From assembly GCA_963663405.2 (NCBI GenBank), contig CAXXSM010000002.1, forward strand, positions 1 to 39,222: a stretch of DNA of 39,222 bases. The letters are read 5' to 3'. Origin of the DNA: a bacterium (lineage in GTDB: Bacteria; Hinthialibacterota; Hinthialibacteria; Hinthialibacterales; Hinthialibacteraceae). This document shows, in pieces, positions 11,713-36,851 of this stretch; the first letter of the stretch is position 1, and every line of letters starts with the position of its first letter. Under the pieces are notes generated by a model. The model was not told the DNA's origin. It ran no database searches and worked only from the letters and a program-made list of their open reading frames with translations. The position numbers were made by a program, and so were the translations under genes.

Positions 11713-12085
11713 GGCGGCCATAAAAAGAAACAGCCGTTCATCTCACCGCGTTTTCTTTCATTTTCCAACTCTTATATAAATCATCATGATCAAGATCACA
11801 ACCTGCAAATGAAAATGAGTTGCGGGAGTAATCAGGGACGAGTCAGTCTCGGAAACTCATTTTTATATAAATTACCAGTGACGAAATAGGGACCCAACCT
11901 TCTTTCGTTTCCATTTTCTATTACTATGATAAATACGGCGGCGGGAATATATATTCATCAATGAGATCTTATGGAAATCCCGCATATGGAATTTCTATTT
12001 TCCTTTCTGCAATGGGATTGGAAATGAATTGTTATTCTGCGTACCGCAGTTTTATTTTTGTTTTACATCCTGGAGGTTATCTGTA

Positions 12086-15224: not shown

Positions 15225-17423
15225 TTAAGTGATTGGGTATATATCCAAGAAACGGATACTGCCTTGAGCGTCATTGATTAATAGTTGTTTCGCATCGGGA
15301 GAAAAATCAATACACCTGATTCCAGGAGCGTTTTGTTCACTATTGGGGGCATCAATGATTTGCTGAAATAGCTGAAATCGAAGTCCCATTGTGAAGATAG
15401 GTCTGAGTTGAGCGATTTCAACGCTCCCTAGTTTTTTCATCGTCTCTAATTCCCAAAGCGTTACCGATCCATCACTCTGTACTACCGCAATGTATTTTGC
15501 ATTGGGCGACAATGCAATGCCTTGATAAGTCCCTGGTATACGGCTAGGAATATCATAACTCACGTCATTCTCAATATCCATAATTTGAAGATATCCCATA
15601 GCATTACAAAACAAAACGGACTTTTCATCGGGTAAGACCATGATGGATTTTAACAGCGCATTTTTATTCTTGATTCTGCGGATGACAGCGCCTTTGCTGA
15701 AATCCCATAAGTCTATGTCGACACTATCCTTAGGATTGACTGCAAACCAGTTTTGGGTAGTATCGAATACGGTTTCATGAATCGCGTTCAACAATCGTCC
15801 CTGGATTTTGGTGATTATTCGCCCCGTTCCGATTTCCCATAGCGTGAGTGTCCCCTTTTGGTCATCACCGATTATTGTCGAGCCATCCTTAGAAAAAATG
15901 GCCTGAGATAAAGATGATGAGTGTCCTTTAAACGTTTGGATTTTTTCTCCCAAATGGACATCCCAAACATTGCAGACATTTTTTAACGCATGATTTCCGA
16001 TCACAAGATCCTGCTGATCTGTATCCATGAGTTGTGTGAGGAGCCATCGGCCATCGGATGAGTAGGCGGTTGTGAGTTGTGTATCAGCCTTTTTTAGAGG
16101 TGGATTTCGCATTGTCCGGCCAGTTTTAAAATCAAAAATATATGTATCGCCAAATGAGGTTCCGCTTAATATGCGGCGGCCATCGGGCAGGAACATAGAA
16201 TAATTCGTAATCTCTGAAGAGAGCGGTAAAGAACGAATGATCGCGCCTGTTTTAAAATCTCGAAAAGTAAACGATTTCGTTCTATTATTAAATACAACGA
16301 TTTGCTGACCATCGGGTGAAAATGCAGAAAATGCGGCCTGTCCGTTTTCATTCTCAAAAGCGCGGATGCGCATACCCGATTTTGCATCCCATAAATGGAT
16401 TTTATTCCAAGCGGACAATACATATTGTCCATCCGGTGAAAGCACAGCATTCCAATATCCACTTTGGTCCAGATGATTGAATGAGGAGGTTTGTAAAAAC
16501 GTTTCCCGTTCAATCTCACACCGATCTTCCAAAAGATTTACATCCCAAATAACGATTGGTTGAGTCAAATTCAAGGAACAATGTGATAAAATTCTTTTTC
16601 CATTAGAAGAGAACAACGCTAAAGGTTTCATTGCAAAGGGTGTTCGCCAAATAAGGCTAGGGTTTCCCTTCTTCGACAGAAGTAGCCGATTCTCTTTAAT
16701 ATCCCATAATTTGCTGCCAAGTGAACTGCCAACAAGAATGCGCCGGCTATCCGGTGAGAATGAGAGTGAGGAGATTTTGGTAAACAGTGTGATGAATCGC
16801 CCGATTCTTTCAGCCGTACGTGTATCCCATATTTTAACTATCCCATAGTTATCGCCAGTAGCTACTTGATTTCCGTCTGGAGATAAAGCGGTAATTATAC
16901 CTGATGTAGTATGTTGAGCGCGTATATGAAGGAGTATTTTTTCATTTTTCAAATCCCATAGAGTCAGAGAGCCTTTATGATTTCCTTGGGCCAGCCACTG
17001 ACCGTCCAAAGAAAACTCTACCGATACAGGAATTTCATTCGCGTTACGCAGCCATTGCGACAGAGCAGGCCGTTCTCCCGTAATATCCCATATAAACACA
17101 CCTAAAGAATTGACTGTGGCGATACGCTTCCAATCGTGTGAAAATGCGAATGTCAAGACCGGTCCCAAGCTAAGAATGGATTCATCCGAATTGTCATGAT
17201 GAGAAGACTTAGGCGAATGAATAACAGAGAGCGCGCTCCTGTCGAGTTCTACTTCCCCAAAGACCGGTGGATTAACGACTAAGGCAGGCTTTTCATTCTC
17301 CAATAGGGAGTATGCCAATAAGAAAAGAACGATCAATAATACAATCACCGCGGCAGAGCCAGCGATAAAAAACGTACGTGGATTCAATCTCCGCCGAAAG
17401 AGAAGACGATATAATTTTCTCAT
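15225..17423 (-). CDS. Membrane-anchored WD40 beta-propeller protein W9
   Basis: MRKLYRLLFRRRLNPRTF, a TM helix, then repeated FSPDG...WD units. Start follows AAGGAGG. Confidence 0.9.
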   Translation of the reverse strand: MRKLYRLLFRRRLNPRTFFIAGSAAVIVLLIVLFLLAYSLLENEKPALVVNPPVFGEVELDRSALSVIHSPKSSHHDNSDESILSLGPVLTFAFSHDWKRIATVNSLGVFIWDITGERPALSQWLRNANEIPVSVEFSLDGQWLAQGNHKGSLTLWDLKNEKILLHIRAQHTTSGIITALSPDGNQVATGDNYGIVKIWDTRTAERIGRFITLFTKISSLSFSPDSRRILVGSSLGSKLWDIKENRLLLSKKGNPSLIWRTPFAMKPLALFSSNGKRILSHCSLNLTQPIVIWDVNLLEDRCEIERETFLQTSSFNHLDQSGYWNAVLSPDGQYVLSAWNKIHLWDAKSGMRIRAFENENGQAAFSAFSPDGQQIVVFNNRTKSFTFRDFKTGAIIRSLPLSSEITNYSMFLPDGRRILSGTSFGDTYIFDFKTGRTMRNPPLKKADTQLTTAYSSDGRWLLTQLMDTDQQDLVIGNHALKNVCNVWDVHLGEKIQTFKGHSSSLSQAIFSKDGSTIIGDDQKGTLTLWEIGTGRIITKIQGRLLNAIHETVFDTTQNWFAVNPKDSVDIDLWDFSKGAVIRRIKNKNALLKSIMVLPDEKSVLFCNAMGYLQIMDIENDVSYDIPSRIPGTYQGIALSPNAKYIAVVQSDGSVTLWELETMKKLGSVEIAQLRPIFTMGLRFQLFQQIIDAPNSEQNAPGIRCIDFSPDAKQLLINDAQGSIRFLDIYPIT

Positions 17424-17518
17424 CGCGTAAACCTCCTTACTCAAAATGCGCTTTAAGTTACAAATGGTTAATAACAACTATATTGCATCGAACAGATCCA
17501 TACTTTCAAGGTCTGGTT

Positions 17519-19642
17519 TTAAGGGGTGGGAGTAGAATTCGGCGCCAGGTGATTGGATACATTCCAAAGTCGAATGCATCCATTGGGATCGCTGGTTAAA
17601 ACCTGTCTTCCATCCGAAGAAACCGCGGCGCAATAGGCAATTGAAACAGTGGGGGGAGTGCGGCCAATAATTTTCATCGTTTCATAATTTAAGAGAGTCA
17701 ATCGGCCATCCTTCCCTTTGGCCGCCGCATAGTTTTGATTGGGTGATATTGCGATGGTTTTCAAGGGATTTTTGTTACCGAATGTAATCTCTCGTGTGGC
17801 GCCGCTCACAATTGCGGTTATTTGAAGGCGATCCTTTTCATTCACGGCTGCAATGGACTCTCCATCAGGAGTAAAAAAGATATGATGCATGAATCCATAT
17901 TGTTGCTGTAATATACGAATTAAAGCGCCCGCTTGGATATCCCATAATTCCACGTCGCCGGATCGCGCCGAGTGGATCGCGATCCATTGTTCATTGGGAG
18001 ATAGCGCTAAACGATTTGCGGAACTCAATTGTCTGCACACAAACGAGACCGCGCCTTTTCCGGTTTGAAGATCCCATATCACAATCGCATTCTTCTGGTC
18101 TACACCGATCACTTTCGAGCCATCTTTTGAGAAAACGCCGTGATTCAAGGGGATTGTATGCCCTTTTAACGTCTGTACTTTTTCTCCCGATTGGACATCC
18201 CAAATCGTGAAGATCGAATGGCGCGCGTTATTTTTCAAAGACAATGATTGCGTGAGAAGCCATTGTTTATCGGAAGAATAGGCGATCGTATGCTGCGTTT
18301 CTTTCGTTTTAAGAGATGGGGTTTGCGCGCATCGGCCAGACTCTACATCCCAGATAAACGTTTGACCACCTACCATTGTTCCACTCAAGATATGCCGGCC
18401 GTCCGGCAGAAAATACGTACGCCCCGCTGTACTATAATAAAGGTTAAAAGAGCGGATCACCTTTCCTGTTTCCAACTCTCTAAATGTAAATAAATTCGTT
18501 CGAGAATCAAACGTAAGATACTGCTGACCATCCGGGGAACAAGCCGCGTAGTCAATCAGAAAATTGTCTTTTTCTAAAACACGGAGACGCGCCCCTGTCT
18601 CCGCATCCCATAACTCCGTGTCTTCCCATGTAGTTAAAATGGATATGCCATCCGGTGAAAACGAGGCGTTATGAAACCAAAAATTTTCCGTTCGGCCAAT
18701 GGAGGCGAGTTGCAAGCATGTTTCCCGTTCAATTTCACACGTTTCATCGAACGCATTCACATCCCACACAACAATGGGTTGAGTCGACTCGATAACATGC
18801 CGCGAGAGAATCCGCTTGCCATTCGGCGAAAATATCGCCGTCGGCGGTATTAGAAAATGCATATTCCCAAGTCCCTTTGCCTGTTTGGAAAAAATCAACG
18901 CTTCCTTCTCTATATCCCAAACATTGAGGGAATTGGTTGCGGCGCTGTCTGTTAGAAGATGGCGCCCATCCGGGCTGAAGGAAATTGCTGTTATCCGGCC
19001 AGAATCATCACTAAATCGACCGATTCTCTTCGCCGTCCGTACATCCCAAATCTTAACCAATCCATTCATATCTCCCGTGGCAAGCCGGGCGCCATCGGAA
19101 GAAAAATCCAATCTCGTTATGGCGGCGCCTAGATGCGCGTTAATATGAAAGAGTGTTTTGCCGCTTACAACATCCCAAAGCGTCAGGGAGCCTTCATTAT
19201 TTCCTTGCGCCAGCAGTTTCCCATCAGGAGAGAACGTCAGTGATTTTGGGGCTTCGTTCTGATTCTGAAACCATTTCAATAACGCAGGCTGTTCTCCTGT
19301 GATATCCCATAGAAAAACACCCATATCACATCCCGTTGCGAGACGTTTCCAATCAGGGGAAAGAACAAGTGTTTCGATCTTGCCAAAACCAAGGATGGTC
19401 TCGCCTGAATCGCCTCGTATAGGATACTCAATACGATCAATAATCGAGAGTTCACGATGATCGATTTCCACCTCCGAATTGGCCCGAGAAGAAACAACCA
19501 GGTTCGCCGCCTTTTTTTTCGATTGCACGATCGTCATCAAGGCAAGAAGAATCAAAACAACGATCACAGCAATCATAACACCAGTCATAAACATTCGCGG
19601 ATCGAGTCTTCGTTTAAACATGAGATTGTAGAATTTTCGCAT
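17519..19642 (-). CDS. Membrane-anchored WD40 beta-propeller protein W8
   Basis: MRKFYNLMFKRRLDPRMF, TM helix, WD40 repeats. Confidence 0.9.
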   Translation of the reverse strand: MRKFYNLMFKRRLDPRMFMTGVMIAVIVVLILLALMTIVQSKKKAANLVVSSRANSEVEIDHRELSIIDRIEYPIRGDSGETILGFGKIETLVLSPDWKRLATGCDMGVFLWDITGEQPALLKWFQNQNEAPKSLTFSPDGKLLAQGNNEGSLTLWDVVSGKTLFHINAHLGAAITRLDFSSDGARLATGDMNGLVKIWDVRTAKRIGRFSDDSGRITAISFSPDGRHLLTDSAATNSLNVWDIEKEALIFSKQAKGLGNMHFLIPPTAIFSPNGKRILSRHVIESTQPIVVWDVNAFDETCEIERETCLQLASIGRTENFWFHNASFSPDGISILTTWEDTELWDAETGARLRVLEKDNFLIDYAACSPDGQQYLTFDSRTNLFTFRELETGKVIRSFNLYYSTAGRTYFLPDGRHILSGTMVGGQTFIWDVESGRCAQTPSLKTKETQHTIAYSSDKQWLLTQSLSLKNNARHSIFTIWDVQSGEKVQTLKGHTIPLNHGVFSKDGSKVIGVDQKNAIVIWDLQTGKGAVSFVCRQLSSANRLALSPNEQWIAIHSARSGDVELWDIQAGALIRILQQQYGFMHHIFFTPDGESIAAVNEKDRLQITAIVSGATREITFGNKNPLKTIAISPNQNYAAAKGKDGRLTLLNYETMKIIGRTPPTVSIAYCAAVSSDGRQVLTSDPNGCIRLWNVSNHLAPNSTPTP

Positions 19643-19655
19643 GGATTATTCCCCT

Positions 19656-21797
19656 TTACCGCTTGGTTTCAACCATCGAAATTGTGCTGGTTATTAAATG
19701 ATCGGACACAGTAAAAACTCGTATCAATCCGCTGGAGCAACTAATTAACAGCTGTTTTCCATCCGGAGAGAAATCGATCGTCATGGGAAACCTCGTGTTA
19801 TGGCGGAAATAGCCGGTCATATTCATCGTTTCCAAATCCCAAAACGTTATGCGCCCATCCGATCCAGCGATAGCGAGAGATTCGCAGTCAGGAGATACCG
19901 CCATACAATTCTTGCGTTGTTTATTGATACAAGGAATCGCGCGCACGGAGCCACTCTCGATATCGGCAATTTGTATAAATTCCAGGCCTTTACTGGTAAT
20001 AATGGATTTCTCATCAGGGGTGAAAAGAATGGGTGGAAACAACCCTTCTGGATGCGGCAATGAACGGAGTGAGGCGCCGGTTTGGAGATCCCATAAATCC
20101 ACGGATTTGGATTGCTTTGACAGAACGGCGAGTTTTGTTTGATCGGGTGACAACGCGGCGCCAAAATACGCATACGCTTGGTTTTCCTGAACCGAAAACG
20201 TCATTTCTCCTGTTTCAATATCCCATACGGTGATATCGCCTTCTCCACCAACACCGGCCAATTTAGAATTATTATCAAAAAAAACGCAGGAATACAAAAA
20301 CGATTGATGCCCTTTCAAGGTCAGAATCTTCTCTCCCGATTGGACATCCCATAAATAGCAAACCGCCTTATATTCTACATTCTCTTTTCTTCCAGGTTGC
20401 GTAAGAAGCCATTGGCCACCGGTTGAATACCCAATCGTGAGCTGTGTTTCCTCGGTCTTCAGTGAAGGCGCTTGCTCACTCCGGCCGGTCTCTAAATCCC
20501 AGATCCATGTTTCTCCATAACTTGTTCCACTTAAGACATGTTGACCGTCCGGTTGAAAATACGTATACGGCGTGGCGTAGGAATGAAGGTGAAATTTTCG
20601 AACCACGTTCCCCGTATCCACCGCTCTAAATTGAAAGAAATTCTGGTGGGGATGAAACGTAACGAATTGGCGGCCATCCATAGAAAAAGACACATAGGCG
20701 ATCGAATAGCCATCATCCTGATACGCGCGGATTCGTTCTCCGGTTTCCACATTCCATAACTCAGCCTTATTCACACCGCTTAACAATTGCTTTCCATCCG
20801 GCGAGAATGCGATCCGTTGAAATAGGTTCAACCACATTGGACTGGTTATTGAGAGCCGCATCTTTTGTTCCTGCTTAATCTCACAACGGTCTTCGGATAG
20901 ATCCACATCCCATAAAACGTAGGGTTGAGTCGCGTTGGAGGGACAGAGAGCAATAATCCGCCTCCCATCGGGAGAGAACATCGCGGATGGTCTTAATAAG
21001 TTAAGATTATTAGAGAAGTAACGCGCAGATTCCTCCCCCTTCGATAGAATCAACTCATTCGTTTGAATTGCCCGGATGGTGAGTGAATCGTTTTGTTCAC
21101 TGCCCGCAAGAAGATATTGACCATCTGGAGTATAAGAGAGGGCGGTTATCGCCTTATGCCCATCGCTGAACCGCTCAATGATCTTCCCCGTTTCTGTATT
21201 CCAAAGTTTAACGATTCCGGTACGATCACCTGTGGCAAGCTGAGTTCCATCAGGTGAAAAAACGGTTCGTGTAATGAAGTTAAATAAATGAGCGCGAATG
21301 TGAAAGAGGATTTTCCCGCTTTCGATTTCCCAAAGCGTCATAGAGCCTTTCTCATTCCCTTGGACAAGTCGCTGACCATCCGGCGAAAAAGCGAGAGATT
21401 CAGGGATGTCGTTTTGATTTTTAAACCATTTCAATACAGAGGGTGGATCTTCCGCTAAATCCCAAACGAACACGCCCATGCTATTGCCAGTAGCAGCGCG
21501 TTTCCAATCAGGAGAAATGACGAACGCTTTGATACTCCCTAAACCAAGAATAGTCTCCCCCGCGGCGCCACGTATAGGATACTCGATCGAATCAATCACG
21601 GAGAGTTCACTTTGATCGATATCCCTTCCCATTCTAAGAGGAGGATACACTTCCAAAGGCGCCGGCCGCTTGTTCGCTTTCGTCAGCGTCAATACAATCA
21701 GAAAAATAAAAATAAGAATGGAAGCGGCGCCTAATCCATTCAAAAACGATCGCGGATCGAGTCTCCGCCGGAATAAGAGATGAAAGAATGTGCGCAT
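19656..21797 (-). CDS. Membrane-anchored WD40 beta-propeller protein W7
   Basis: MRTFFHLLFRRRLDPRSF, TM helix, WD40 repeats. Start assigned by homology to the paralogs. Confidence 0.9.
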   Translation of the reverse strand: MRTFFHLLFRRRLDPRSFLNGLGAASILIFIFLIVLTLTKANKRPAPLEVYPPLRMGRDIDQSELSVIDSIEYPIRGAAGETILGLGSIKAFVISPDWKRAATGNSMGVFVWDLAEDPPSVLKWFKNQNDIPESLAFSPDGQRLVQGNEKGSMTLWEIESGKILFHIRAHLFNFITRTVFSPDGTQLATGDRTGIVKLWNTETGKIIERFSDGHKAITALSYTPDGQYLLAGSEQNDSLTIRAIQTNELILSKGEESARYFSNNLNLLRPSAMFSPDGRRIIALCPSNATQPYVLWDVDLSEDRCEIKQEQKMRLSITSPMWLNLFQRIAFSPDGKQLLSGVNKAELWNVETGERIRAYQDDGYSIAYVSFSMDGRQFVTFHPHQNFFQFRAVDTGNVVRKFHLHSYATPYTYFQPDGQHVLSGTSYGETWIWDLETGRSEQAPSLKTEETQLTIGYSTGGQWLLTQPGRKENVEYKAVCYLWDVQSGEKILTLKGHQSFLYSCVFFDNNSKLAGVGGEGDITVWDIETGEMTFSVQENQAYAYFGAALSPDQTKLAVLSKQSKSVDLWDLQTGASLRSLPHPEGLFPPILFTPDEKSIITSKGLEFIQIADIESGSVRAIPCINKQRKNCMAVSPDCESLAIAGSDGRITFWDLETMNMTGYFRHNTRFPMTIDFSPDGKQLLISCSSGLIRVFTVSDHLITSTISMVETKR

Positions 21798-21821
21798 GAA
21801 TATTCCCCCCAAATCGCTCGT

Positions 21822-24068: not shown

Positions 24069-24120
24069 GAATTCCCCCTATACAGCGCGTTTATTGTTTG
24101 ATGTTTAAAAAGCATAACGA

Positions 24121-26346
24121 TCAAGGTTTGGTTTGAATCAATGGAGCAGGAGTAGGCTCCGGTTCGAAAGCAGTGGGAACATCCAAGATTCGAATGGCTC
24201 CTTCAGCGCCGGTGAACAGAATTTGTTTGCCATCTGGAGAGAAATCGACACATTTGATTTGAACAGGATTGCGGGGGAATCCGCTCACGTCTCGCCAGCC
24301 ACTTGGCTGCATCCCCATCATCGGTCCGGATGGAATTTTATAAATTTCAATACTTCCCACCTTTTTCATGGTCTCCAATTCCCAAAGCGTCACTTGGTTA
24401 TAGGCGTCAGACACCGCAAGATATTTTGAATCGGGCGATAATGCGATAGCGCTTGTGAATCTTGTCTTTGCGCTGGGAATCTCGTATTTGACGCCGTTTA
24501 ACATATCCGTGATCTGAAGATACCCCATCGCATTCAGGCCAAGAACGGATCTTTCATCTGGGAATACCATGATCGGAGATAACACACCATGTGTATTCTC
24601 AATCGTCATAATCAAGACGCCCGGTTGGATATCCCATTGAGCAATATCGTTGGAATTATCGGGGACAACTGCGATCCACTCTTGACCGGTTGACGCTAAA
24701 GAGCCCTGAATCTTATTTAATAGTCTCCCCCGAAGGGTAGTAATGAGTTCCCCCGTCTCGATATCCCATATGAAAATAGTATTATCCTTATCAGCGCCAA
24801 CGGCTTTCGAGCCGTCGTTTGAGAAATAGGCTTTTTCCAATATGGATGAATACCCTTTAAGCATTTGAACTCTCTCCCCGGTCCGTGTATCCCATACATG
24901 AAAGACAGGATCGGATTCCATATTATTGTTCGCAATGGATTGTGATAGCAGCCGCTGTCCATCGGAAGAATAGGCGATTGTCAATTGCCAATCCGAAGAT
25001 TGAAGAAAGGGAAATTGTATCGTCCGGCCAGACGCTAAATCCATAATGTACGTTTCACCCGTATCCGCGCCAGCTAAAATATGTTGGCCGTCCGGCAGAA
25101 ATTGACTCCAATGCGTAGGACGGGTATGAAGTGGGAAGGAGCGTATGACCTCTCCCGTATCCAAATTTCCGAATGTGAATACATTGATAAATGTAAATAG
25201 ATTTATATAGAAATTGAATGTTACAAACTCCCTGCCATTCGGAGAACAAGCGGCATAGATAATCCGGCCCTGAGTTTTTTTATAATCCCGGATACGCTCA
25301 CCAGTTTCCGCGTCCCATAATGTAATTTTGTTATCTGAGGTCAAAACATACTTTCCATCCGCCGTAAATGAAGCATTCATAAACTGGATTGATCGATCTG
25401 AAGGTATCTTTAAGTACGTTTCCCGTCCAATCTCACCATGGTTATTAGATAGGTTTACATCCCACAAAATAATGGGTTGCTCCAGGATAGAAGAACAGCG
25501 CGAGAGAATCCGTCTTCCATTTGGAGAAAACATCGCGGATGGCGTCACACAATTTTCAGATCGCTCATAAAATGAGTTGTCACTCCGCTTGGAGAGAATC
25601 AATCGTTTCGTTTTCATGTCCCAAACGGTAAGATAATTGATTTTGTTGCTGGCCGCTAGAAGATATTGACCGTCTGGAGTAAAAGAAAACGCTGAGATAC
25701 TGCTATGCCCCTTACTAAATCGCCCGATTCTCTTCCCAGTCTCCGTTTCCCAAATCTTAATCCGTCCCAAAATATCGCCTGTAACAAGACAAACGCCATC
25801 TGGAGAAAATAACATTTCCGAAATCATGGTTCTTGAATGAACGCGCTTGTGAAAAAGCGCTTCCCCACGTTCCACATCCCAAATAGTCAATGAACCTCGA
25901 TCATTCCCCTGCGCCAATCGCCGCCCATCCGGCGAAAACGCCAGGGATTGCGCCGTCTCCTTCTGATTCCGGAACCATTTCAATAACACGGGCCGCTGTG
26001 GTGTGATATCCCATAAAAACACCCCTAAATCACTGGCTGTGGCGAGCCGCTTCCAATCCGGCGAAAGAGTGAATGTCAAGACCGGCCCTAAGCCGAGAAT
26101 CGGCTCACCTGAATCTTCTTGTAAAGGAATGTTCGCCGAATGAACAACTGACAACGCGCTCTGATCGAGATCCTTTTCCCCATAGAGTGGTGGATAGACA
26201 ACGAGGCCTGTTTTTACGTCTTTAAGTTTTGGATATGTAATCACAACAAATACAATAAAAAATACAACGATCGCAACGCCAACAGAAATCATGAACGTTC
26301 GCGGTTTGAGTCTTCGTCTAAAAATGTGATAGTAGAGTTTACGCAT
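24121..26346 (-). CDS. Membrane-anchored WD40 beta-propeller protein W5
   Basis: MRKLYYHIFRRRLKPRTF, TM helix, WD40 repeats. Confidence 0.9.
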   Translation of the reverse strand: MRKLYYHIFRRRLKPRTFMISVGVAIVVFFIVFVVITYPKLKDVKTGLVVYPPLYGEKDLDQSALSVVHSANIPLQEDSGEPILGLGPVLTFTLSPDWKRLATASDLGVFLWDITPQRPVLLKWFRNQKETAQSLAFSPDGRRLAQGNDRGSLTIWDVERGEALFHKRVHSRTMISEMLFSPDGVCLVTGDILGRIKIWETETGKRIGRFSKGHSSISAFSFTPDGQYLLAASNKINYLTVWDMKTKRLILSKRSDNSFYERSENCVTPSAMFSPNGRRILSRCSSILEQPIILWDVNLSNNHGEIGRETYLKIPSDRSIQFMNASFTADGKYVLTSDNKITLWDAETGERIRDYKKTQGRIIYAACSPNGREFVTFNFYINLFTFINVFTFGNLDTGEVIRSFPLHTRPTHWSQFLPDGQHILAGADTGETYIMDLASGRTIQFPFLQSSDWQLTIAYSSDGQRLLSQSIANNNMESDPVFHVWDTRTGERVQMLKGYSSILEKAYFSNDGSKAVGADKDNTIFIWDIETGELITTLRGRLLNKIQGSLASTGQEWIAVVPDNSNDIAQWDIQPGVLIMTIENTHGVLSPIMVFPDERSVLGLNAMGYLQITDMLNGVKYEIPSAKTRFTSAIALSPDSKYLAVSDAYNQVTLWELETMKKVGSIEIYKIPSGPMMGMQPSGWRDVSGFPRNPVQIKCVDFSPDGKQILFTGAEGAIRILDVPTAFEPEPTPAPLIQTKP

Positions 26347-26423
26347 CGAGTCTTTTCCCCCACGCCTAAGAGCATTTAATGATTAACGTTTAAAAGAGAG
26401 AATTGTATCGGTGAATCTGTCGC

Positions 26424-28549
26424 TTATGGTTTAAGAATAGGGGTGGGAGTGGGTATGGGCATAAGGTTTGTAAATAGATTCCAAATTCGAATACTGCCAT
26501 CGGCGCCGCTGATTAACAGCTGCTTTCCATCTGGAGAAAAATCAATTGCTAGAATGACAGAAACATTTGAGTGAAAATAACCGATCATCTTCAACGTCTC
26601 TAAATCGAGAATCGACACGCGCCCGTCTTCACCAGCGGCCGCGTAATACTTTCCATCGGGCGAAACCGCGCAGCATTTCAAAAATCCCGTTATTGCGTTC
26701 GGAATTTGGCGGCTCTTAGTGCTCTCGATATCTGTAAATTTGAAGAGTTTTCCTGCCATCAACGGATAAAATTGATTTCCCATCGGGTGTAATAGCAATA
26801 GGATGAAATATATTTTGATTTTGTATTAATTGAATCAATTCTCCGGTTTCGATATTCCACAATGTTAGAGTATCCGATAGCATCGACTGCGTTATTATCG
26901 TATCTGGAATGGGAGATTGAAGAATTCCGTAAATCGGATTCTGTTGTTTCTCCTCCATGGACACGCTCACTTCTCCCGTCTTGATATCCCAGACAGAGAT
27001 TTGTCCTTTTTCCACGCCGATGACTTTGGATTTATCATTCGTAAATACTGGATGATTCACATTTCCCTTTAATGTCAGTATTTTCTCTCCCGATTGAATA
27101 TCCCATATATAACGTTCTTCCTTGGTTGTGGAATTTGGATTTCTACGAGGACGGGTGAGAACCCATTGCCTGTCAGGGGAATAATTGACTGGATAATGCC
27201 ACTCATCCGTTTGTAGAGAACACGATCGAACGCGCCGTCCCTGCTCGATATCCCAGATCTGTGTATCGCCTGATTCACATCCACTTATGACATACCGCCC
27301 ATCCAGCGTGACAATAGGCAAACGGAGTTGGATTGGAATGCAGGTGGAAAGTACGGATCGTTTTTCCGGTTTCAAATTCCCGGAATTGAAATAAATCCGC
27401 TTGAGGATGAAATGTGACGATCTGCTGGCCATCCGGTGAAAACGCCGCGTAGGAGATCAATCCGCGATCGTCCGGAAAATGATGAGTGGGAGCGCCTGTT
27501 TCTGCATCCCATAACTCAACGCGATTCCAAGCGGTTAGAACGTGTTTTCCATCCGGTGAAAAGGAAGCGTTAAAAAACCGGAACGATCCACTCACCTCAG
27601 AGGGTGAGAACTGCAAATAGATTTCACGGGTAATCTCACTCCCATTTTCGATAAAATTCACATCCCACACAACCAAAGGAAGATCCGGATTATTGGAACA
27701 TGGTGAGAGAATCCTCGCTCCATCGGGAGAAAACACCGCTGACGGTGAAATTTCATTTTGATCGTGACGGTAAGACAATACATTTTGCCCCTTCTTGGTT
27801 AGAAGCAATTGGCTCTTTTCAATCTCCCAAACGGTGAGTGTGTTGGTTTGTAAACTGCCCGTCAATACGTATCGGTCATCCGGATTAAAAACAATGGTTG
27901 AGATCCCCCCATGACTTGTATTCAACGTCTCAACCTTTTCTCCCGTTTTTGTATCCCACACTTTCACCAATCCCTGCACATCTCCCGTGACAAGCCGCCT
28001 GCCATCCGAGGAGAACGCGAGCGCTGTGATAATCGTGACGAAATGCGCGCGAATGTGAAAGACTGGTTCCCCACTTTCCAAATCCCACAGCGTCAGCGAG
28101 CCTTTATTATTCCCCTGCGCCAACAGTTTTCCATCCGGCGAAAACGCAAGCGATCGCGGAACTTCGTTCCGATTCCGAAACCATTGCGTCAGCGTTGGTT
28201 CTTCCCCCGTTATATCCCACAAGAAAACACCCATTTCGCTGGCCGTAGCGAGCCGTTTCCAATCGGACGAAAAATCAAACGCCTCGATCTTTCCCAAACC
28301 AAGAAGGATCTCCCCCGAATCCCCTCGTAAGGGATACTGAATCGAATCGAGAACAGAAAGTTCACTTGGATCGATATTCGCATCCCGATTCACCGGATTC
28401 GAAACAACAAAAGACGCCTGCTTTTCCTTAAACAACATAATCGTCAAAATGAGTACAATAAAAATGATTACTGACGCGATCACAATCAAAAACATAAACA
28501 CCCGTGGATCAAGTTTTCGCTGAAAAAGAACGTGATAGAATTTTGGCAT
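26424..28549 (-). CDS. Membrane-anchored WD40 beta-propeller protein W4, split by two frameshifts (~27312, ~26738); pseudogene or sequencing error
   Basis: ORFs 27275-28549, 26716-27432 and 26424-26798 together reconstruct one full-length paralog. Confidence 0.85.
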
Positions 28550-28620
28550 TGTTTTCCCCTTTTCTTTATTACATTTATAGATGTGGATATGTACTCCGCA
28601 CGAAAAGAAAAGATGTTATT

Positions 28621-30765
28621 TTACTCGAATGGCTCAGACAAATCCCAAATTCGAATACTGCCATCCGCGCCGTTGATTAACAACCATTTCCCATCTGGAG
28701 AAATATCAATACTTGTAACTTTCATGACTTTATGGGGGAATTGCTTTATCATCTTCATTGTCTCTAAATCGACGATTTTCACTTGACCGTCAATCCCTTC
28801 CGTGACATCAACAAAATAGGGGCGATCGGGCGCCGCGGCGAGATGATTATAGAAGGACGTAGACACAAGAGAATCTTGGAGCCGGAGTTTACTGCTGTTT
28901 CCACTGGGTATCACGCGCGTAGCGCCGCTCACTATATCTGTCATCAGATAATCTAATTCTCTCGTATTCGAAACAGCGGTTTTTTCATCCCTAGTAAAAA
29001 GAATGGGAAGATACAGCCCATCCGGGTAATGCCACGAGCGCAAAAATCGACCTGTTTGGATATCGCATAAGTAAACAGTATCGGATTCAGTCGAGTTGAC
29101 CGCAATCCAATTTTCATGGGGAAATAGCGAAAAACTATGAATTGATAGATGGTAGTTCTTCTGCATTTGAGCCGTGATTTCTCCCGTAGCAATATCCCAA
29201 ACGGTGATCAGCCCATTTTCATCACCCGTAATCAACTTCGAACCATCTTTTGAGAAAATGACAGAGATGAAAGGAGAGAAATATTCTTCGATCGTCTGTA
29301 TTTTTTCTCCTGTTTTGACATCCCAAATACTGCACACGGATATTCCATTGTTATAATGTTCGGCGTACGATTGAGTGAGAATTTTTTTTCTATCCAAAGA
29401 ATATGCGATTGGCCATTGCATTTCCTCTGTTTGTAGTAAGGGAGTTCGAATCCGCTGATGGGATTCAACATCCCAAATCAACGTATCACCAAAATAACTT
29501 CCACTTAAAATACGCTTGCTGTCCGGCATGAAGTAAGTATATGGCGTTGGAGCGGAGTGATATTGAAAAGACCGGATCACTCTGCCCGTTTCCAATTCTC
29601 TAAAGGCAAAAAAATTGCTATTGGAATGGACTGTAAGAAACTGTTCTCCATCAGGTGAACAAGCCACATAAGAAATGCTTCCGTTCTCTTCTTGAAATGT
29701 GCGGATGAGCTCCCCCGATTTAGCGTCCCATAACACGGCGCAGTCTCCAGCGGTCAAAATCCGCAGGCCATCGGGAGTAAACGTCGCGTTTTGATACTCA
29801 GCCGCTTGCGGCTGGTTGGAGGAGAGCCGCGACAGGTATGTTTCACCTAGAATATCACATCGATAGCTCGATAGTATCACATCCCAGAGAACGATCGAGT
29901 TAGCCTCACGGGTAGAACAGTGCGAAAGTATCCGCTTTCCATCCGGTGAGAACATCGCGGATGGCGGCGCCACATTTACATTGCTATAAGGATTATTTTT
30001 CAATCCTTGTTTGAATAGAATCTTCTTGTTCTTTTTTATATTCCATACGATTAATACATTGGATGTCAGTGAGGACGCTAACAGATATCGGCTATCCGGA
30101 GTAAAGGAAATTGATGTGACATCACTATCCATTATAAATTGTTCTATAAGTTCTCCTGTCTCCACTGCCCAAATCTTTACCCGCCCGTATGCATCTCCTG
30201 TCGCAAGCGAGGCGCCATCTGGAGAAAACACGATTCGTGAAATGGTTTTGGATACATGCGCGTGAATATGAATGAGCGCCTTCCCGCGTTCAATCTCCCA
30301 AAGCGTCAGCGAGCCTTTATCATTTCCCTGCGCCAGCCATTGACCGTTTGGTGAAAACGCCAGCGATTTTGGAACATCAGATGGATTGATAAAACGCTTC
30401 AAAATAGTGGGCCGTTCTCCCGTGTTGTCCCATAAAAACACACCCAACTCACATCCCGTGGCAAGCCGATCCCAATTGGATGAAAGAGCGAACGCCGTTA
30501 TCTGCCCTAAACTGAAAATGGTCTCACCCGGATCATTCGTCGTGAGATACTGCCTTTTCTCTTCGACATAAAGTTCGCTTGGATCGATCACTCTTCCCTT
30601 ATTGGCTGGAGGATATACAACGAGATCCGACTCCCATTGTTTTAATTTTCCCCCTACAACGATGACGAGAACGATGAAAATCAGAATCAAAGCGATTCCC
30701 ACACTCGTCATAAACATCCGTGGATCAAGTTTTCGCTTAAAAAGAAGATGGTAGATTTTCGGCAT
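28621..30765 (-). CDS. Membrane-anchored WD40 beta-propeller protein W3
   Basis: MPKIYHLLFKRKLDPRMF, TM helix, WD40 repeats. The longer ORF start at 30903 overlaps W2 and is rejected. Confidence 0.9.
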   Translation of the reverse strand: MPKIYHLLFKRKLDPRMFMTSVGIALILIFIVLVIVVGGKLKQWESDLVVYPPANKGRVIDPSELYVEEKRQYLTTNDPGETIFSLGQITAFALSSNWDRLATGCELGVFLWDNTGERPTILKRFINPSDVPKSLAFSPNGQWLAQGNDKGSLTLWEIERGKALIHIHAHVSKTISRIVFSPDGASLATGDAYGRVKIWAVETGELIEQFIMDSDVTSISFTPDSRYLLASSLTSNVLIVWNIKKNKKILFKQGLKNNPYSNVNVAPPSAMFSPDGKRILSHCSTREANSIVLWDVILSSYRCDILGETYLSRLSSNQPQAAEYQNATFTPDGLRILTAGDCAVLWDAKSGELIRTFQEENGSISYVACSPDGEQFLTVHSNSNFFAFRELETGRVIRSFQYHSAPTPYTYFMPDSKRILSGSYFGDTLIWDVESHQRIRTPLLQTEEMQWPIAYSLDRKKILTQSYAEHYNNGISVCSIWDVKTGEKIQTIEEYFSPFISVIFSKDGSKLITGDENGLITVWDIATGEITAQMQKNYHLSIHSFSLFPHENWIAVNSTESDTVYLCDIQTGRFLRSWHYPDGLYLPILFTRDEKTAVSNTRELDYLMTDIVSGATRVIPSGNSSKLRLQDSLVSTSFYNHLAAAPDRPYFVDVTEGIDGQVKIVDLETMKMIKQFPHKVMKVTSIDISPDGKWLLINGADGSIRIWDLSEPFE

Positions 30766-30784
30766 CACATATACCTCAGTTCGT

Positions 30785-33028
30785 TCAAGGCGCAGGAGCA
30801 GGCGCAAGTATGTTAGACAGATTCCAGATTTGTATATTCCCATCCGATCCACTAAGTAAAAGCCGTTTGCCATCTGGAGAAAAATCGAGGGCTTGGACCT
30901 CAAGGGCGCTTTGAGGAAAGTTGTATATAAATTGCGTTCCCATTTTCTTCCAGTTGGTCATCCCTGGGTTGGATTGAAGTGGGCCGGTGAGCAGGTCTGT
31001 TCCAACATTTATCACTCCTTGCGGCGTCTCCAAATTCAAAAATATCAACCGGCCTCCATATCCACTGCCCACAAGATATTTCCCATCGGGCGATATCGCA
31101 GCGGAATTTGAGAACTGATTTCTTCCATATTGGATCTCACGTGATTCTTCATTTTCAATCGAAAAGATTTGTAGATATCTGTCGCCAATGCCGGTCAATA
31201 TCGATCGCCCATCTGGAAAGAACAAAAGAGGGGAAGACGATCCAGATATGTACTTTGTTGTGCAAATCAATTCACCGGTTTGGATATCCCATATATTCAC
31301 AATATGCTCTTGTGATCCAGGTTGGTATTTTATTGGTCTAAGTATGACGGCGGCGCTCTCTCCTGTTGGAGATAAGGCGAAAGCCTCTATCGAAAAAGAT
31401 TTTTTCTCCTGAATAGACTCAATGATCTCACCCGTCTCAGCATCCCATATTGTGATATCCCCATCCACCCCCGCGCCGATCACTTTCGAACCATCTCGCG
31501 TCATAACACAGGATCGCAAGTACGATTTATATCCTTTAAACGTCTGGATCTTCTCCCCCGACTGAAGATCCCAAACATAACATTCATTCTTTCGATCCTT
31601 AAACAGGACACCAGGTTTCCCTCTAAACTCACTAAGCAGCCTTTGCCGATCAGAGGAATATCCAAACACACGTTGCGGTTCATTTGTTTTAAGTGAATAG
31701 GTCTCCGTGACGCGCCCCGATTCCAAATCCCGGATATATGTGACACCGGTATCGCTTCCACACAAGATATGGCGCCCATCGGGCATAAACAAAGTGAATT
31801 TCGATGGATTGGAATGCAGTTCGAAGGAGCGGATCACCTTTCCTGTTTCCAACTCTCTAAATGTAAAATCATGTGTCCGCCAATTAAATGTAACAAACTG
31901 CCATCCATCCGGTGAAAACGCCACATGAGAATAAGCGCCGTCAAGTTTCGGATACGCGCAGATACGCGCCCCCGTTTCCGCATCCCACAACGAAGCCTGC
32001 TCCCAGGCGGTCATCACATACTTGCCATCCGGCGAGAATGAGATGTTTTGGTATTGGATTGGTATGGACTGACCTGTGGCCGATTGGATCAAATGGGTTT
32101 CCCGTTCAATCTTACCGTTTGCGTCATTCAAACTTACATCCCACAAAACAAAGGGCTGCGTCGCGCTGGACACGCATTGCGAGAGAATCCGTTTCCCATC
32201 TGGCGAGAACAGAGCGGAAGGCGTCATCAAATTGAGATCGTATGGATGAAACGCAAGTTCGCCCCCCCGTTTGGATAGAATCATACGATTCTTTTCCCAT
32301 TCCCACACAGTCACTGTGTTCCCTTGCGCGCCGCCCACCAGAAGATACCGCCCATCTGGAGTAAACGACAGCGCCGTAATCCCGCCTTCCTGCTCATTAA
32401 GCTGACCGATCCTCTTCCCCGTTTCTGTATCCCAAATCTTCACCCGTCCAACAGCGTCACCCGTAACAAGAAGGCTCCCATCAGGAGAAAACACAAGTTT
32501 TGTGATGGTCGAGTTAAGATACGCGCGGATATGGAAGAGTATTTCCCCGCTTTCTTGTTCCCATAGCGTCAGAGTTCCTCCATCATTTCCCTGCGCCAGA
32601 AGCCGGCTATCCGGTGAAAACGCCAATGCATTGGGTATATCATCCTGATTCCGCAGCCATTTCAATAACCGGGGCGGATCTTCCGTGATATCCCAGATAA
32701 AAACGCCCATATTGCAACCCGTAACAAGGCGATCCCAATCGGGAGAAAAAGTGAACGTCAAAATCATTCCCAAGCGGAGAATCGTTCCTTTCGAATCCAC
32801 TTTGATGGGATACTCCAACGAATCGAGTACGGAAAGTCCACTTCGATCAATGGCCGTTTCCCAAACTGGCGGCGGAGATACAACAACGCCCGGTGGATTT
32901 TGTTCTGGTTTAAAAAAAACGATTACGGCGAAAAGTATAAAAACAATGATGAATACAATTCCTGCGCCGGTCATAAACGTCTGCGGAGTAAGTCTTCGCT
33001 GGAAAAAAAGATACCGATTTTTACGCAT
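30785..33028 (-). CDS. Membrane-anchored WD40 beta-propeller protein W2
   Basis: MRKNRYLFFQRRLTPQTF, TM helix, WD40 repeats. GAGGAGG SD. Confidence 0.9.
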   Translation of the reverse strand: MRKNRYLFFQRRLTPQTFMTGAGIVFIIVFILFAVIVFFKPEQNPPGVVVSPPPVWETAIDRSGLSVLDSLEYPIKVDSKGTILRLGMILTFTFSPDWDRLVTGCNMGVFIWDITEDPPRLLKWLRNQDDIPNALAFSPDSRLLAQGNDGGTLTLWEQESGEILFHIRAYLNSTITKLVFSPDGSLLVTGDAVGRVKIWDTETGKRIGQLNEQEGGITALSFTPDGRYLLVGGAQGNTVTVWEWEKNRMILSKRGGELAFHPYDLNLMTPSALFSPDGKRILSQCVSSATQPFVLWDVSLNDANGKIERETHLIQSATGQSIPIQYQNISFSPDGKYVMTAWEQASLWDAETGARICAYPKLDGAYSHVAFSPDGWQFVTFNWRTHDFTFRELETGKVIRSFELHSNPSKFTLFMPDGRHILCGSDTGVTYIRDLESGRVTETYSLKTNEPQRVFGYSSDRQRLLSEFRGKPGVLFKDRKNECYVWDLQSGEKIQTFKGYKSYLRSCVMTRDGSKVIGAGVDGDITIWDAETGEIIESIQEKKSFSIEAFALSPTGESAAVILRPIKYQPGSQEHIVNIWDIQTGELICTTKYISGSSSPLLFFPDGRSILTGIGDRYLQIFSIENEESREIQYGRNQFSNSAAISPDGKYLVGSGYGGRLIFLNLETPQGVINVGTDLLTGPLQSNPGMTNWKKMGTQFIYNFPQSALEVQALDFSPDGKRLLLSGSDGNIQIWNLSNILAPAPAP

Positions 33029-33111
33029 GGTTCATTCCTCCTCATTACATAAACGCGCGATAGTTGATTTATGTTTATTTTGAGAGAATGAATGCGGATG
33101 GATTGATCCAG

Positions 33112-35370
33112 TTATTGATGGATTGTATCTGTCGAGCTGAGGATAAGATGATCGGATAGATTCCAAATTCGAATCGTCCCATCATTGCCGCCGATTAAAA
33201 GTAATTTCCCATCCGGCGATAGATCGTAGCTACTAACGTTCGAAACGTTATGGGGAAATTCACCGATTTTTCGATACTTCTCTAAATCCCAAGCTATCAC
33301 ACGGCGATTCGATCCATACATTACTTCTACGAGGATTTTTTGATCGGAGTTTATTCCCGAATGGCGGGGACGAAGCAGCGCACCAATCATATTCCGTATT
33401 TCTGTCATTTCGATCTGAATTTCTCGTGTAGTTCCACTTTCTATATCGATAAAATCAAGAGTATTTCTATCATCATAAAAAGAAATAATGGATTTCCCAT
33501 CGGGAGATAAATTAATTCGTGGAAACATTTCATTAACTGGTCGATCTAATTTTATTGATCGCACAAACTTCCCCGTATGAGTATCCCAAAAATGAATGGT
33601 TTCAGATCCGATCGTAATAATAGCGGCAAAATCAGTGATGGAAGATCTAATAATTTCTTGCATGTCCTGATTCGGATTCTCCGTATTAATCTTACCACTA
33701 CTCCAATCAGTGAGTTGGTCGTGGTTTGAGGTTGTATTTCTACCCGTTTCAAGATCCCATATTGTTACTTCTCCACGTCCTGCGCTGCAAATCAGTTTCG
33801 AACCATCTTTTGAGAAAACGCCGTAATACAAACGGGGAGTAATTCCATCCAACGAACATACATTTTCTCCTGTCTCAACATTCCAAACATTACCCACCTT
33901 ATTGTAAATCCTATATTGTTTATCGTATGACTGCGTAAGGAGCCATTTCCGGTCAGAAGAATAGTTGACCGTCAATTGCCTATTTTTTGTGCTCAAGAAT
34001 GAGTGGCCTGTGATGCGGCCGGACTCAATATCCCAGAAAATTGTTTCACCGTATTGCGTGCCAGTCATCACGCGCTGGTTATCCGGCATGAAATAGATAT
34101 AGGGCGAGTTCTTCGAATGAAGATAAAACGAACGGATCACCTCCCCCGTTTCCAGCGCTCTGAATTGAAACAGATTCGCTTGCGGATGATACGTGAAAAT
34201 TCGCTGACCATCCGGGGAACACGCTAAATACGAGATCGCGCCGCGCTCTTCCTGAATCGAACGGATAGGCGCGCCGGTATGCGCGTCCCATATATCGATC
34301 CGTTCCCAAGCGGTCAAAATCATCTGACCATCCGGCGAAAACACAGCGTTCTGAAATTGGATTAATCCATCGGTATCGGTAGCGGATCGCAGCAAATGCG
34401 TTTCCCCTTTGATCTCACTCCCATTTTCGAATAGATTCACATCCCACACAACAATCGGTTGAGTCGCTTGAGAGGAACATCTTGAGAGAATCCGCTTGCC
34501 ATCAGGTGAAAACATCGCGGATGGTGTCTTCACATCAAACGTTTTTGGAAACACTATGTTCTGATACTGCCTGGGTAGAATAAACGTTTCCGGAGACACT
34601 AAGCTCTGATACTGCCTGGGTAGAATCAACGCTTCCTTGGCTAAATCCCAAACGGTCATCGTGCTTGAAAGGTCGCTGGTGACCAGGATATAGCGTCCAT
34701 CCGGAGAAAAAGAGAGCCCGGATATCGCGCTGCTAGTATATCGAAACTTTCCCATCTGGCTGCCCGCGGCTACGTCCCAAATCATCACACATCCCGAACT
34801 ATCGCCTGTGGCCATCTGTTTTCCATCGGGAGAAAACGCAAGTTGTAAAATAGCGGCGCCAATATTCGCGCGAATGTGAAAGAGCGATTCTCCACTCTCC
34901 AACTCCCAAAGAGTCAGGGAACCTTTCGCGTTCCCCTGCGCCAGGCGCCGGCCATCAGGCGAAAACGCAAGCGAACTGGGCACGTCGTTCTCATTCCGGA
35001 ACCATTTCAAGGGCATGGGATCTTTTCCCGAAATATCCCATACAAATACACCCAAAACGCTCCCCGTAGCGAGGCGCTTCCAATCCGGAGAAAGAGCAAA
35101 CGCTGAAAGATCCCCCAAACCGAGAAGGATCTCCCCTTCGGAGCCGCGAATGGGATACTCAAGCGTATCCATCACGGAGAGTTCACCTCGATCGATTTCC
35201 ATCCCCCGTTCCGGTGGATACACAACCAAAGGGGGACGCTCTTTTTTCGTTTTAAACAGTGTTATGCCAACAAGAAGAAAAAAAAGAACGGCTGAAACAA
35301 CACAAACACCTGTAATGAACGTCCGTGGATCAAGCTTTCGCCGAAAAATATAATAGAAGATTCTACGCAT
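33112..35370 (-). CDS. Membrane-anchored WD40 beta-propeller protein W1
   Basis: MRRIFYYIFRRKLDPRTF, TM helix, WD40 repeats. Confidence 0.9.
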   Translation of the reverse strand: MRRIFYYIFRRKLDPRTFITGVCVVSAVLFFLLVGITLFKTKKERPPLVVYPPERGMEIDRGELSVMDTLEYPIRGSEGEILLGLGDLSAFALSPDWKRLATGSVLGVFVWDISGKDPMPLKWFRNENDVPSSLAFSPDGRRLAQGNAKGSLTLWELESGESLFHIRANIGAAILQLAFSPDGKQMATGDSSGCVMIWDVAAGSQMGKFRYTSSAISGLSFSPDGRYILVTSDLSSTMTVWDLAKEALILPRQYQSLVSPETFILPRQYQNIVFPKTFDVKTPSAMFSPDGKRILSRCSSQATQPIVVWDVNLFENGSEIKGETHLLRSATDTDGLIQFQNAVFSPDGQMILTAWERIDIWDAHTGAPIRSIQEERGAISYLACSPDGQRIFTYHPQANLFQFRALETGEVIRSFYLHSKNSPYIYFMPDNQRVMTGTQYGETIFWDIESGRITGHSFLSTKNRQLTVNYSSDRKWLLTQSYDKQYRIYNKVGNVWNVETGENVCSLDGITPRLYYGVFSKDGSKLICSAGRGEVTIWDLETGRNTTSNHDQLTDWSSGKINTENPNQDMQEIIRSSITDFAAIITIGSETIHFWDTHTGKFVRSIKLDRPVNEMFPRINLSPDGKSIISFYDDRNTLDFIDIESGTTREIQIEMTEIRNMIGALLRPRHSGINSDQKILVEVMYGSNRRVIAWDLEKYRKIGEFPHNVSNVSSYDLSPDGKLLLIGGNDGTIRIWNLSDHLILSSTDTIHQ
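34537..34626. repeat. 45-bp in-frame tandem duplication inside W1
   Basis: 34537-34581 vs 34582-34626, 40/45 identical. Encodes ILPRQYQSLVSPETF / ILPRQYQNIVFPKTF. Confidence 0.9.
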
Positions 35371-35593
35371 GGATTCCCCCCAAAACTGTTTTCACGCATC
35401 TAACAAGAAGAGTATCACAAAAAAAATATCCTATCGATCAAATCTGCGCATTTATTGATGGACTAACACAAGGCAGGCAAGCGTCATTTGCTGATACTAT
35501 GCGGTATTCATATAATCCTGTGAATCCTGGCCATCCAGATTCAGACGAAAAAAATATCAAGTAATCAGTTGTGAAATTTAGGGGATATTCGTA

Positions 35594-35986
35594 TCAATCA
35601 ATTTTTTCTTTGCGCCGTTTTTTCACCATCCGGCGGATTTCTTTCAGATCCTCATCGCTCCAGTCTGGATAGTCGATGAAATGTTGAAACATATTCAGTG
35701 GATCGCCTTGGAACACATCGTCAATGAAAGACCGCAGCGAACGGGCGCTTTCTTCCTCCCGCGTCAGGACGGGGATGTAAATATAGTTTTTCCCTTTTCG
35801 ATTGTGTTTCAACCAGCCTTTTTTTTCGAGTTTCTGCATAGAAGAGAGGATCGTGGTATAGGCGAGATCTCGTTTCTTTTTCAACATCTCGCGCACTTCA
35901 TGAACTGGGCCGCCCCCCATATCCCATAGGATTTCCATAATCTCCCGTTGTAAATCACCGAGTTCCGCAATCGATTTTTTCTTCAT
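35594..35986 (-). CDS. BlaI/MecI/CopY-family transcriptional repressor
   Basis: LGDLQREIMEILW...LAYTTILSSMQKLEKKGWLKH...GKNYIYIPVLTREE...FIDDVFQG...LKEIRRMV. Confidence 0.92.
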   Translation of the reverse strand: MKKKSIAELGDLQREIMEILWDMGGGPVHEVREMLKKKRDLAYTTILSSMQKLEKKGWLKHNRKGKNYIYIPVLTREEESARSLRSFIDDVFQGDPLNMFQHFIDYPDWSDEDLKEIRRMVKKRRKEKID

Positions 35987-36022
35987 CGATTTCCTCCCCC
36001 CGCATTTACGTGACCATATTAC

Positions 36023-36059
36023 TACTAACCATAGTATTACATAACATATATAAATTCAA
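36023..36059 (-). promoter_or_regulatory. Promoter and probable autoregulatory operator of the BlaI-like gene
   Basis: Minus strand TTGAAT (36059-36054), 17 bp spacer, TACTAT (36036-36031). Palindrome TACTA-ACCA-TAGTA (36023-36036) overlaps the -10. Confidence 0.6.
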
Positions 36060-36167: not shown

Positions 36168-36216
36168 TAATTCCGATATTCTTACTGGACGGATCTTCAA
36201 GTCTACAGGGAATTAT
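36168..36216 (+). repeat. 49-bp copy of part of the antitoxin gene
   Basis: 46/49 identical to 36749-36797. Confidence 0.9.
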
Positions 36217-36325
36217 ACTGAGCGCGGGCATAATCTGAGCTTTTCAATCCATATTTAACTTTCAACGGGGCTTGTTTCTGGTAATGAGAAACGCAGATTA
36301 TGATCGCACAGGGTATATATCAAGC

Positions 36326-36417
36326 AGCTGGGTAGCAAGGGGAAGGCTTTTTTCTCCCCTTGCATAATTTCCGGAACGTAGCCAGGGCAGAAAAAAGCCT
36401 TGCCCTGGGCACCCGCT
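36326..36417. repeat. Second type of inverted REP-like hairpin doublet
   Basis: GCAAGGGGA-AGGCTTTTTTC-TCCCCTTGC and the inverted homologue CCAGGGCA-GAAAAAAGCCT-TGCCCTGG. AAGGCTTTTTTCT / AGAAAAAAGCCTT is a perfect 13-bp inverted repeat. Confidence 0.65.
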
Positions 36418-36848: not shown

Positions 36849-36851
36849 TCC

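Follow-up and report, generated by a model that had tools for sequence, protein, structure and literature searches.

What would a bacterium gain by keeping nine tandem genes for membrane-anchored WD40 propellers that carry no effector domain? This question is raised by contig CAXXSM010000002.1 (assembly GCA_963663405.2) from an uncultured member of the Hinthialibacteraceae. The window analyzed here is the entire contig (39,222 nucleotides; C2), which belongs to a genome assembly of 8.44 Mb (G000). An earlier note on this DNA had described nine co-oriented WD40 genes 13–95 bp apart, and this layout was borne out at positions 15225–35370 of the minus strand. The array is real and unusually large; it varies on systems already known and does not constitute a new one. 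Judged from its sequence, it is a genome-specific, old and selected expansion of a WD40 subtype restricted to the host's order. The genes, with coordinates taken from refined ATG starts, are as follows.

33112..35370, minus strand: gene I, anchored double WD40 propeller, 752 aa
30785..33028, minus strand: gene H, 747 aa; copy used for the structure model
28621..30765, minus strand: gene G, 714 aa
26424..28549, minus strand: gene F, full length in three frames with two breaks; assembly error or pseudogene
24121..26346, minus strand: gene E, 741 aa
21822..24068, minus strand: gene D, 748 aa
19656..21797, minus strand: gene C, 713 aa
17519..19642, minus strand: gene B, 707 aa
15225..17423, minus strand: gene A, 732 aa; 3' end 10 bp from a convergent GH38 gene

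From I to A, the intergenic gaps measure 83, 19, 71, 77, 52, 24, 13 and 95 bp.

Architecture and integrity of the array

Each array protein is composed of a basic N-terminal peptide, one hydrophobic helix, a stalk of 29–32 residues, a lead-in motif (PxRGxSGExILGLG) and WD40 repeats, in that order. The basic peptide is conserved in the intact copies (MRKxYxLxFRRRLxPRTF). Each of the eight intact copies has a single helix, with a 19-residue Kyte-Doolittle value of 2.5–3.2, while the next best segment reaches 0.9–1.4. The hydrophobic run spans 19–25 residues without an AxA cleavage site (0/9), and a lipobox cysteine after the helix is absent. Lysines and arginines number 5–7 before the helix versus 1–4 in the 15 residues after it, and the N-side count is higher in all eight intact copies.

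The AlphaFold2 model of H has 14 blades, with a mean predicted local distance difference test score (pLDDT) of 74.8. Its top Foldseek matches were tandem double propellers (2ymu, Pwp2/Utp and Aip1), with 2ymu the best; the array proteins, having 7-bladed propellers built from WD40 repeats, belong to the WD40 double beta-propeller class. Pfam searches with four of the nine proteins returned solely WD40/propeller families in the best 25 matches listed for each, with PF00400 above the cut-off in 4/4, and NCBIfam returned nothing above the cut-off for two array proteins. No fused or adjacent kinase, NACHT, TIR or caspase effector was found for the array, and PADLOC gave a weak partial hit only. 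The earlier note's description of stand-alone proteins with a short basic N-terminus, one transmembrane helix and, by length, about two propellers therefore holds, and we likewise found no matching named family for them.

The eight intact proteins are 707–752 aa long and share 39–48% pairwise identity. Among the pieces listed, short-read contigs from the same sample showed no differences from the array and spanned seven of its eight junctions (A-B, B-C, C-D, E-F, F-G, G-H and H-I); none of these pieces bridged D-E or the junction between gene I and the blaI repressor gene upstream. Joints in this comparison were disregarded, as their sides were short. The breaks in gene F lie at ~27303–27314 and ~26737–26750, neither of which is covered by the listed pieces. 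The assembly is prone to indels: 87 conserved genes (112 kb) contained 12 frame breaks, or ~1 per 9 kb genome-wide, which makes pseudogene calls in this assembly unsafe. At this background rate 2.2 breaks are expected across the array and two were observed; the chance that both fall in one gene is 1 in 9. Because the two breaks match the assembly's background error rate, gene F may be intact, and the earlier count of eight intact genes, which the eight open frames confirm, may be an understatement. Elsewhere in the window, at 572–7541, housekeeping genes are split across frames; from their sequence we take them to resemble PSP1, rimO, miaA and cdsA. A foreign origin of the array by composition was rejected on its GC content at third codon positions (0.40–0.48; the genome has its median at 0.52 and its 10th percentile at 0.41).

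Origin, selection and relatives

The nine genes formed one clade with a star-like interior (support 100/100 and 100/98). Three of 55 rows without a lead-in hit were dropped from the first tree, and the second was built on 34 chosen rows. These trees show a single origin through old tandem duplication, which accords with the earlier description of the copies as homologous yet strongly diverged. All 28 pairs of intact copies had a synonymous divergence (dS) of 1.1–2.8 and a nonsynonymous-to-synonymous ratio (dN/dS) of 0.20–0.45, values that are rough because dS is near saturation. Read with that margin, they show purifying selection on the array copies, as the earlier note had proposed, and at least eight of the nine frames have stayed open despite a dS above 1.

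Variation is unevenly distributed over the fold. Top-face loops are 24% identical versus 56% for bottom loops (permutation p 1e-4), the faces being assigned by standard WD40 geometry, and all seven loops with length changes of at least two residues belong to the top face. Identity declines from 53% in blades 1–4 to 33% in blades 11–14. In the first propeller, the Dtop/Dstrand ratio of the array is 2.63. Among the controls, two sets of orthologous M56 ectodomains gave 1.44–1.50, four paralog sets 1.87–2.07, and two other pairs 1.26 and 2.72. This pattern fits divergent specificities without proving them.

Relatives were sought in a comparison set of 35 genomes of the phylum, host included, among which there is no second genome of the host's genus. 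A profile of the N-terminus and lead-in matched 17 of the 35 genomes, all in the host's order; seven of its 16 rows came from relatives, which match by construction. Loci were inspected for 42 of the 62 matches outside the host genome. The domain occurs in three forms: preceded by a signal peptide and, in 19 of 28 cases, ending in a short aromatic tail at the C-terminus (W/F/Y-x-x-Y/H/F); behind a BlaR1-type M56 protease beside blaI (contig C110 of the host, and genomes G001, G009, G012, G020, G021 and G025); and behind a basic tail and anchor, without the C-terminal tail (10 genes at eight loci in 5 of the 34 other genomes). Of these anchored homologs, three in G021 have shorter helices and are less certainly assigned, and one in G012 has a single propeller. 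They stand two in tandem at most, and by profile-match coordinates two per contig is also the maximum in every other genome. Homologs in the relatives have no neighbors in common.

Within the host genome, smaller tandem WD40 sets lie on C92 (four genes), C21 (three), C165 (two) and C42 (two), so that nine copies are the extreme of this genome's habit of tandem duplication. Those at C92:90354-98761, C21:88811-92185 and C165:20487-22723 encode signal-peptide WD40 proteins with the C-terminal tail. Across the same genome, 149 of 3529 long open reading frames (ORFs) end in W-x-[LIMVEQ]-[YHF], versus ~6 expected.

A second study yielded pieces of 225–466 bp with 85–99% identity to genes C, D, E, F, H and I, and differences were also listed on B; by these pieces, relatives carrying these genes exist. 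The 40 differences listed, out of 240, fell on codon positions 3/1/2 in a 20/14/6 split and were too few and too selected to use. In a protein database search, the best 120 of 6420 hits (8000 scored candidates) had at most 30% identity outside this contig. The whole N-terminal profile fitted only the window's proteins and one 734-aa protein among the best 150 matches, and a further screen found it in 3 of 207 candidates, two of them from the window. A search limited to short proteins gave no match, a metagenome scan found seven loci at 25–31% identity, and the ESM Atlas returned generic WD40 clusters only. The database searches were swamped by generic WD40s, and none of them proves absence.

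Cell location and the favored reading

The host encodes BamA and LpxC and, by this gene content, is a diderm. The basic tail would stay in the cytoplasm, while the helix and the ~30-residue stalk would hold the two propellers in the periplasm. An extracytoplasmic location, as proposed earlier, is supported because the same propeller subtype is found after signal peptides and after the final helix of BlaR1-type M56 proteases; the charge excess on the N-side of the helix points the same way. Inner-membrane anchoring with periplasm-facing propellers is more likely than surface exposure, because the anchor is long and apparently uncleaved and the C-terminal tail is missing (0/8 intact copies versus 19/28 signal-peptide homologs). 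With neither an AxA site nor the tail, the array proteins fall outside the tailed secreted proteins of the Hinthialibacterota.

What, then, would nine such proteins do? We tentatively favor, as quite possible, a non-signaling and non-catalytic battery of inner-membrane-anchored binders facing the periplasm. The scaffold is common to all copies, while each would offer its own top face. Together they would capture a range of related proteins or peptides entering the periplasm (e.g., toxins, lytic enzymes or inhibitors), and the captured ligands would be held or neutralized. The array is probably transcribed as one or a few transcripts, and its layout resembles that of a homogeneous polyimmunity locus, for which co-orientation, small gaps and a lack of interleaved genes are listed (Zhang et al. 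2012, PMC3482391). The array shares that layout, with tandem co-oriented paralogs, small gaps and no toxin genes between them, and its membership in the class fails because no toxin link was found. The earlier suggestion of a diversified repertoire is plausible from the top-face variation, though the bias lies within the range of the control WD40 groups.

Several points weigh against a battery of binders. Immunity proteins are generally smaller than a double propeller of 700 aa. The predicted periplasmic topology rests on charge and homology. The Dtop/Dstrand value of the array falls at the upper end of the range of the eight control groups, matched by one (2.72) and approached by four (1.87–2.07), so that the top-face bias is partly generic to WD40s. 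Top-loop pN/pS was 0.81, which is below 1, with dS near saturation. No recent gene conversion or repeat like those of diversity-generating retroelements was found in the array, where the best internal match was 87% over 69 nt, and no recombinase adjoins it. ORF lists read by eye revealed no recognizable toxin gene beside the array or at the eight anchored-homolog loci. Finally, the term "WD40" is absent from the first 300,000 of the 357,715 characters of PMC3482391.

The upstream blaI gene, rival readings and known systems

A repressor gene of the BlaI family lies upstream of gene I on the same strand, with two further features around it.

35594..35986, minus strand: blaI/MecI/CopY-family repressor, 130 aa (PF03965, E 1.5e-29)
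36020..36036, no strand assigned: palindrome TACT-N9-AGTA, candidate operator for BlaI at the blaI promoter (pattern match)
35504..35576, no strand assigned: short dispersed repeat within the 223 bp that separate blaI from gene I (89 blastn hits including itself, on 48 contigs)

Eleven blaI homologs were found at 41–52% identity. All ten examined have an M56 gene directly behind, with varied ectodomains, whereas no M56 ORF follows the blaI beside the array. The palindrome occurs once in the window (0.06 expected). Upstream of the ten closest blaI homologs it is exact in seven, has one mismatch in one and is lacking in two, the pattern having been derived from these same regions. Across the genome it is not enriched (42 sites versus 28–42 for other spacers), and for this reason we drew no regulon. 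No operator-like palindrome was found inside the array, and promoter and terminator scans gave chance-level results. Of the parts of a BlaI/BlaR1 system, the locus thus has the repressor and a palindromic candidate operator and lacks the adjacent sensor-fused M56 protease, its array proteins having one helix and no M56 domain. A tie between blaI and the array would rest on adjacency, and a complex prediction for a BlaI dimer with the N-terminal 45 residues of the array proteins yielded no answer either way (score 0.00). The genome has 19 blaI-like ORFs, seven without a neighboring M56 hit, and at least 12 blaI-M56 pairs; of the six other M56-less ones, three precede split or BlaR-like genes.

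At L048–L055, TACT-N9-AGTA is conserved upstream of blaI, sometimes as tandem copies spaced 15 bp apart, and marks the promoter of this BlaI subgroup. At C110:140694-144060 the host carries blaI and an M56-WD40 fusion, a BlaR1-like receptor with a propeller ectodomain, and like fusions occur in six other genomes. In some of these fusions the last helix resembles a signal peptide and the C-terminal tail is present, a combination suggesting that the ectodomain is shed. Genome G001 has two BlaR-like WD40 genes sharing the same N-terminus (L022:2-2047 and L153:1-1356); L022 lacks the protease core, so that its N-terminal helices run straight into the propeller, either a second protease loss or an assembly join.

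One rival to the binder battery is a rewired BlaI/BlaR system, which we consider unlikely. The array proteins would be protease-less BlaR ectodomains (last helix, stalk and propeller) that feed an M56 protease in trans, or a BlaI-repressed output that is induced once a related M56-WD40 sensor, such as that on C110, has cleaved this BlaI. BlaR1 offers a parallel, since its sensor is homologous to the beta-lactamase that it induces. Such rewiring would explain the same-strand blaI directly upstream with its intact operator-like palindrome and missing M56 gene, as well as the lack of a detectable terminator-like site in the gap before gene I. The closest blaI paralog in the genome (46%) precedes an M56-WD40 fusion that shares the lead-in motif. 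With a profile running from the array stalk to blade 3, the top three of 46 homologs were M56-WD40 fusions (113–116 bits; next 106), which like the array proteins have a stalk of ~30 residues and no tail, and BlaR sensing domains are diverse (PMC13492132). Against this, trees place the array in a polytomy, sister to no M56 fusion and outside the group containing the C110 fusion (90/91 support). None of the eight anchored-homolog loci has an adjacent blaI, and the stalk-type fusions of G009 and G012 pair with another BlaI subgroup (22–23% identity). The 223-bp gap with its dispersed repeat, the lack of an internal operator and the other blaI-like ORFs without M56 also count against it. Direct descent from the C110 fusion is thus unsupported by the trees, which leave ancestry from a stalk-type fusion open. 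Somewhat less probable is a dismantled BlaI/BlaR locus, in which the protease was lost and the ectodomain amplified to nine receptors without a protease, driven from the BlaI promoter. Such receptors would widen the input of an M56 protease acting in trans or serve as induced periplasmic sponges for the ligand class sensed by the sister M56-WD40 sensor. The outcome would be a modular, multi-receptor form of regulated proteolysis, of which the literature searched held no example. Full-text search, with most subscription papers outside its coverage, gave no paper combining WD40, BlaI and M56, nor OLB16 and WD40, and, of seven papers naming Hinthialibacter, the one searched (PMC9324843) mentions neither "WD40" nor "propeller" in its available text.

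The remaining rivals leave blaI aside. About as unlikely as the rewired system is that the proteins serve as generic scaffolds or assembly factors of the envelope, which birth-and-death duplication has amplified, with dosage or slight subfunctionalization and no distinct specificities. The genome's tendency toward tandem WD40 duplication, the comparable top-face bias of those paralog sets and the lack of shared neighbors in relatives would suit them. Dosage arrays usually remain near-identical, however, whereas these copies have diverged to 39–48% identity with dS above 1 and all been retained, and the orthologous M56 ectodomains are weaker in top-face bias. Surface display, which the earlier note had favored in the form of receptors, adhesins or phage decoys and which might also involve prey or host binders or glycan sensors, is improbable. 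Tailed proteins with a signal peptide, probably exported, do carry the same domain, a GH38 mannosidase adjoins the array, and a phagocytic planctomycete has expanded periplasmic or outward-facing WD40 arrays (PMC11032199). Yet the host is a predicted diderm and the anchor looks uncleaved, without a lipobox cysteine or tail. The GH38 gene is convergent, and its four closest relatives for which DNA downstream is present (just 1 kb in one) have no array at that place. Least probable are cytoplasm-facing propellers acting as intracellular sensors, like the WD40 modules of NACHT or kinase proteins. Lysines do occur behind the helix (1–4 in 15 residues), and the database matches are mostly generic WD40 proteins that also contain a kinase or NTPase domain; on the other side stand the higher N-side charge, the cleavable signal peptides before the same domain in many homologs, and the lack of an effector gene in or beside the array.

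Other features flank the locus. At ~8060–15214 on the plus strand, microcompartment genes (shell protein, PduL, a protein of unknown function and aldehyde dehydrogenase) precede GH38, in an order identical in L061 and L062. SURF_12, among the closest GH38 relatives, has the same microcompartment genes upstream and has been assigned to OLB16, Ca. Hinthialibacterota (PMC9324843), which makes this the probable phylum of the host as well. At 36567–37220 on the plus strand, divergent from blaI, a 93-aa ORF is followed by a 122-aa ParE-like ORF (PF05016, E 0.003, below the cut-off), a probable type II toxin-antitoxin pair. Upstream of blaI also lie a 49-bp direct repeat (94%; 36168–36216 and 36749–36797) and an element of ~200 bp (36214–36416) that contains an inverted repeat and recurs on other contigs (97% on C35), possibly mobile-element remnants.

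Extracytoplasmic bacterial WD40 domains have mostly been described within kinases, sigma factors or proteases. A selected, effector-less set of nine, though known from one uncultured genome and built on a common fold, is a natural panel for probing what propellers bind. Since M56 sensors, secreted proteins and bare anchors of one order all bear the domain, a ligand for one would inform all three, and if the blaI link is true, the locus represents a new way of broadening a BlaR-type sensor.

In conclusion, the array has counterparts in several known systems and is identical to none of them. Homogeneous polyimmunity loci (PMC3482391) are likewise tandem, co-oriented sets of distant paralogs of one binding fold, with small gaps and no toxin gene between; the array differs in its 700-aa membrane-anchored double WD40 proteins, which are not a listed Imm family, and in having no known cognate toxin or adjacent recombinase. 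The Ser/Thr kinases and extracytoplasmic function (ECF) sigma factors of Planctomycetota (PMC11032199, PMC8567305) are also single-pass, lineage-expanded proteins with periplasmic WD40 domains, but they carry a cytoplasmic kinase or sigma domain where the array proteins have ~17 residues. Prokaryotic highly repetitive WD40 proteins (2ymu; PMC5587647) share the fold; they are young repeat-level duplicates, whereas the array arose by duplication of entire genes and its blades have diverged. With BlaI/BlaR1, MecI/MecR1 and CenIR (PMC7593790, PMC13492132) the locus shares a BlaI-family repressor and an operator-like palindrome, and its proteins resemble the last helix and ectodomain of M56-WD40 fusions of the same order. 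Unlike BlaI/BlaR1, it has neither M56 nor a domain that binds beta-lactams, and presents nine ectodomain-only genes.

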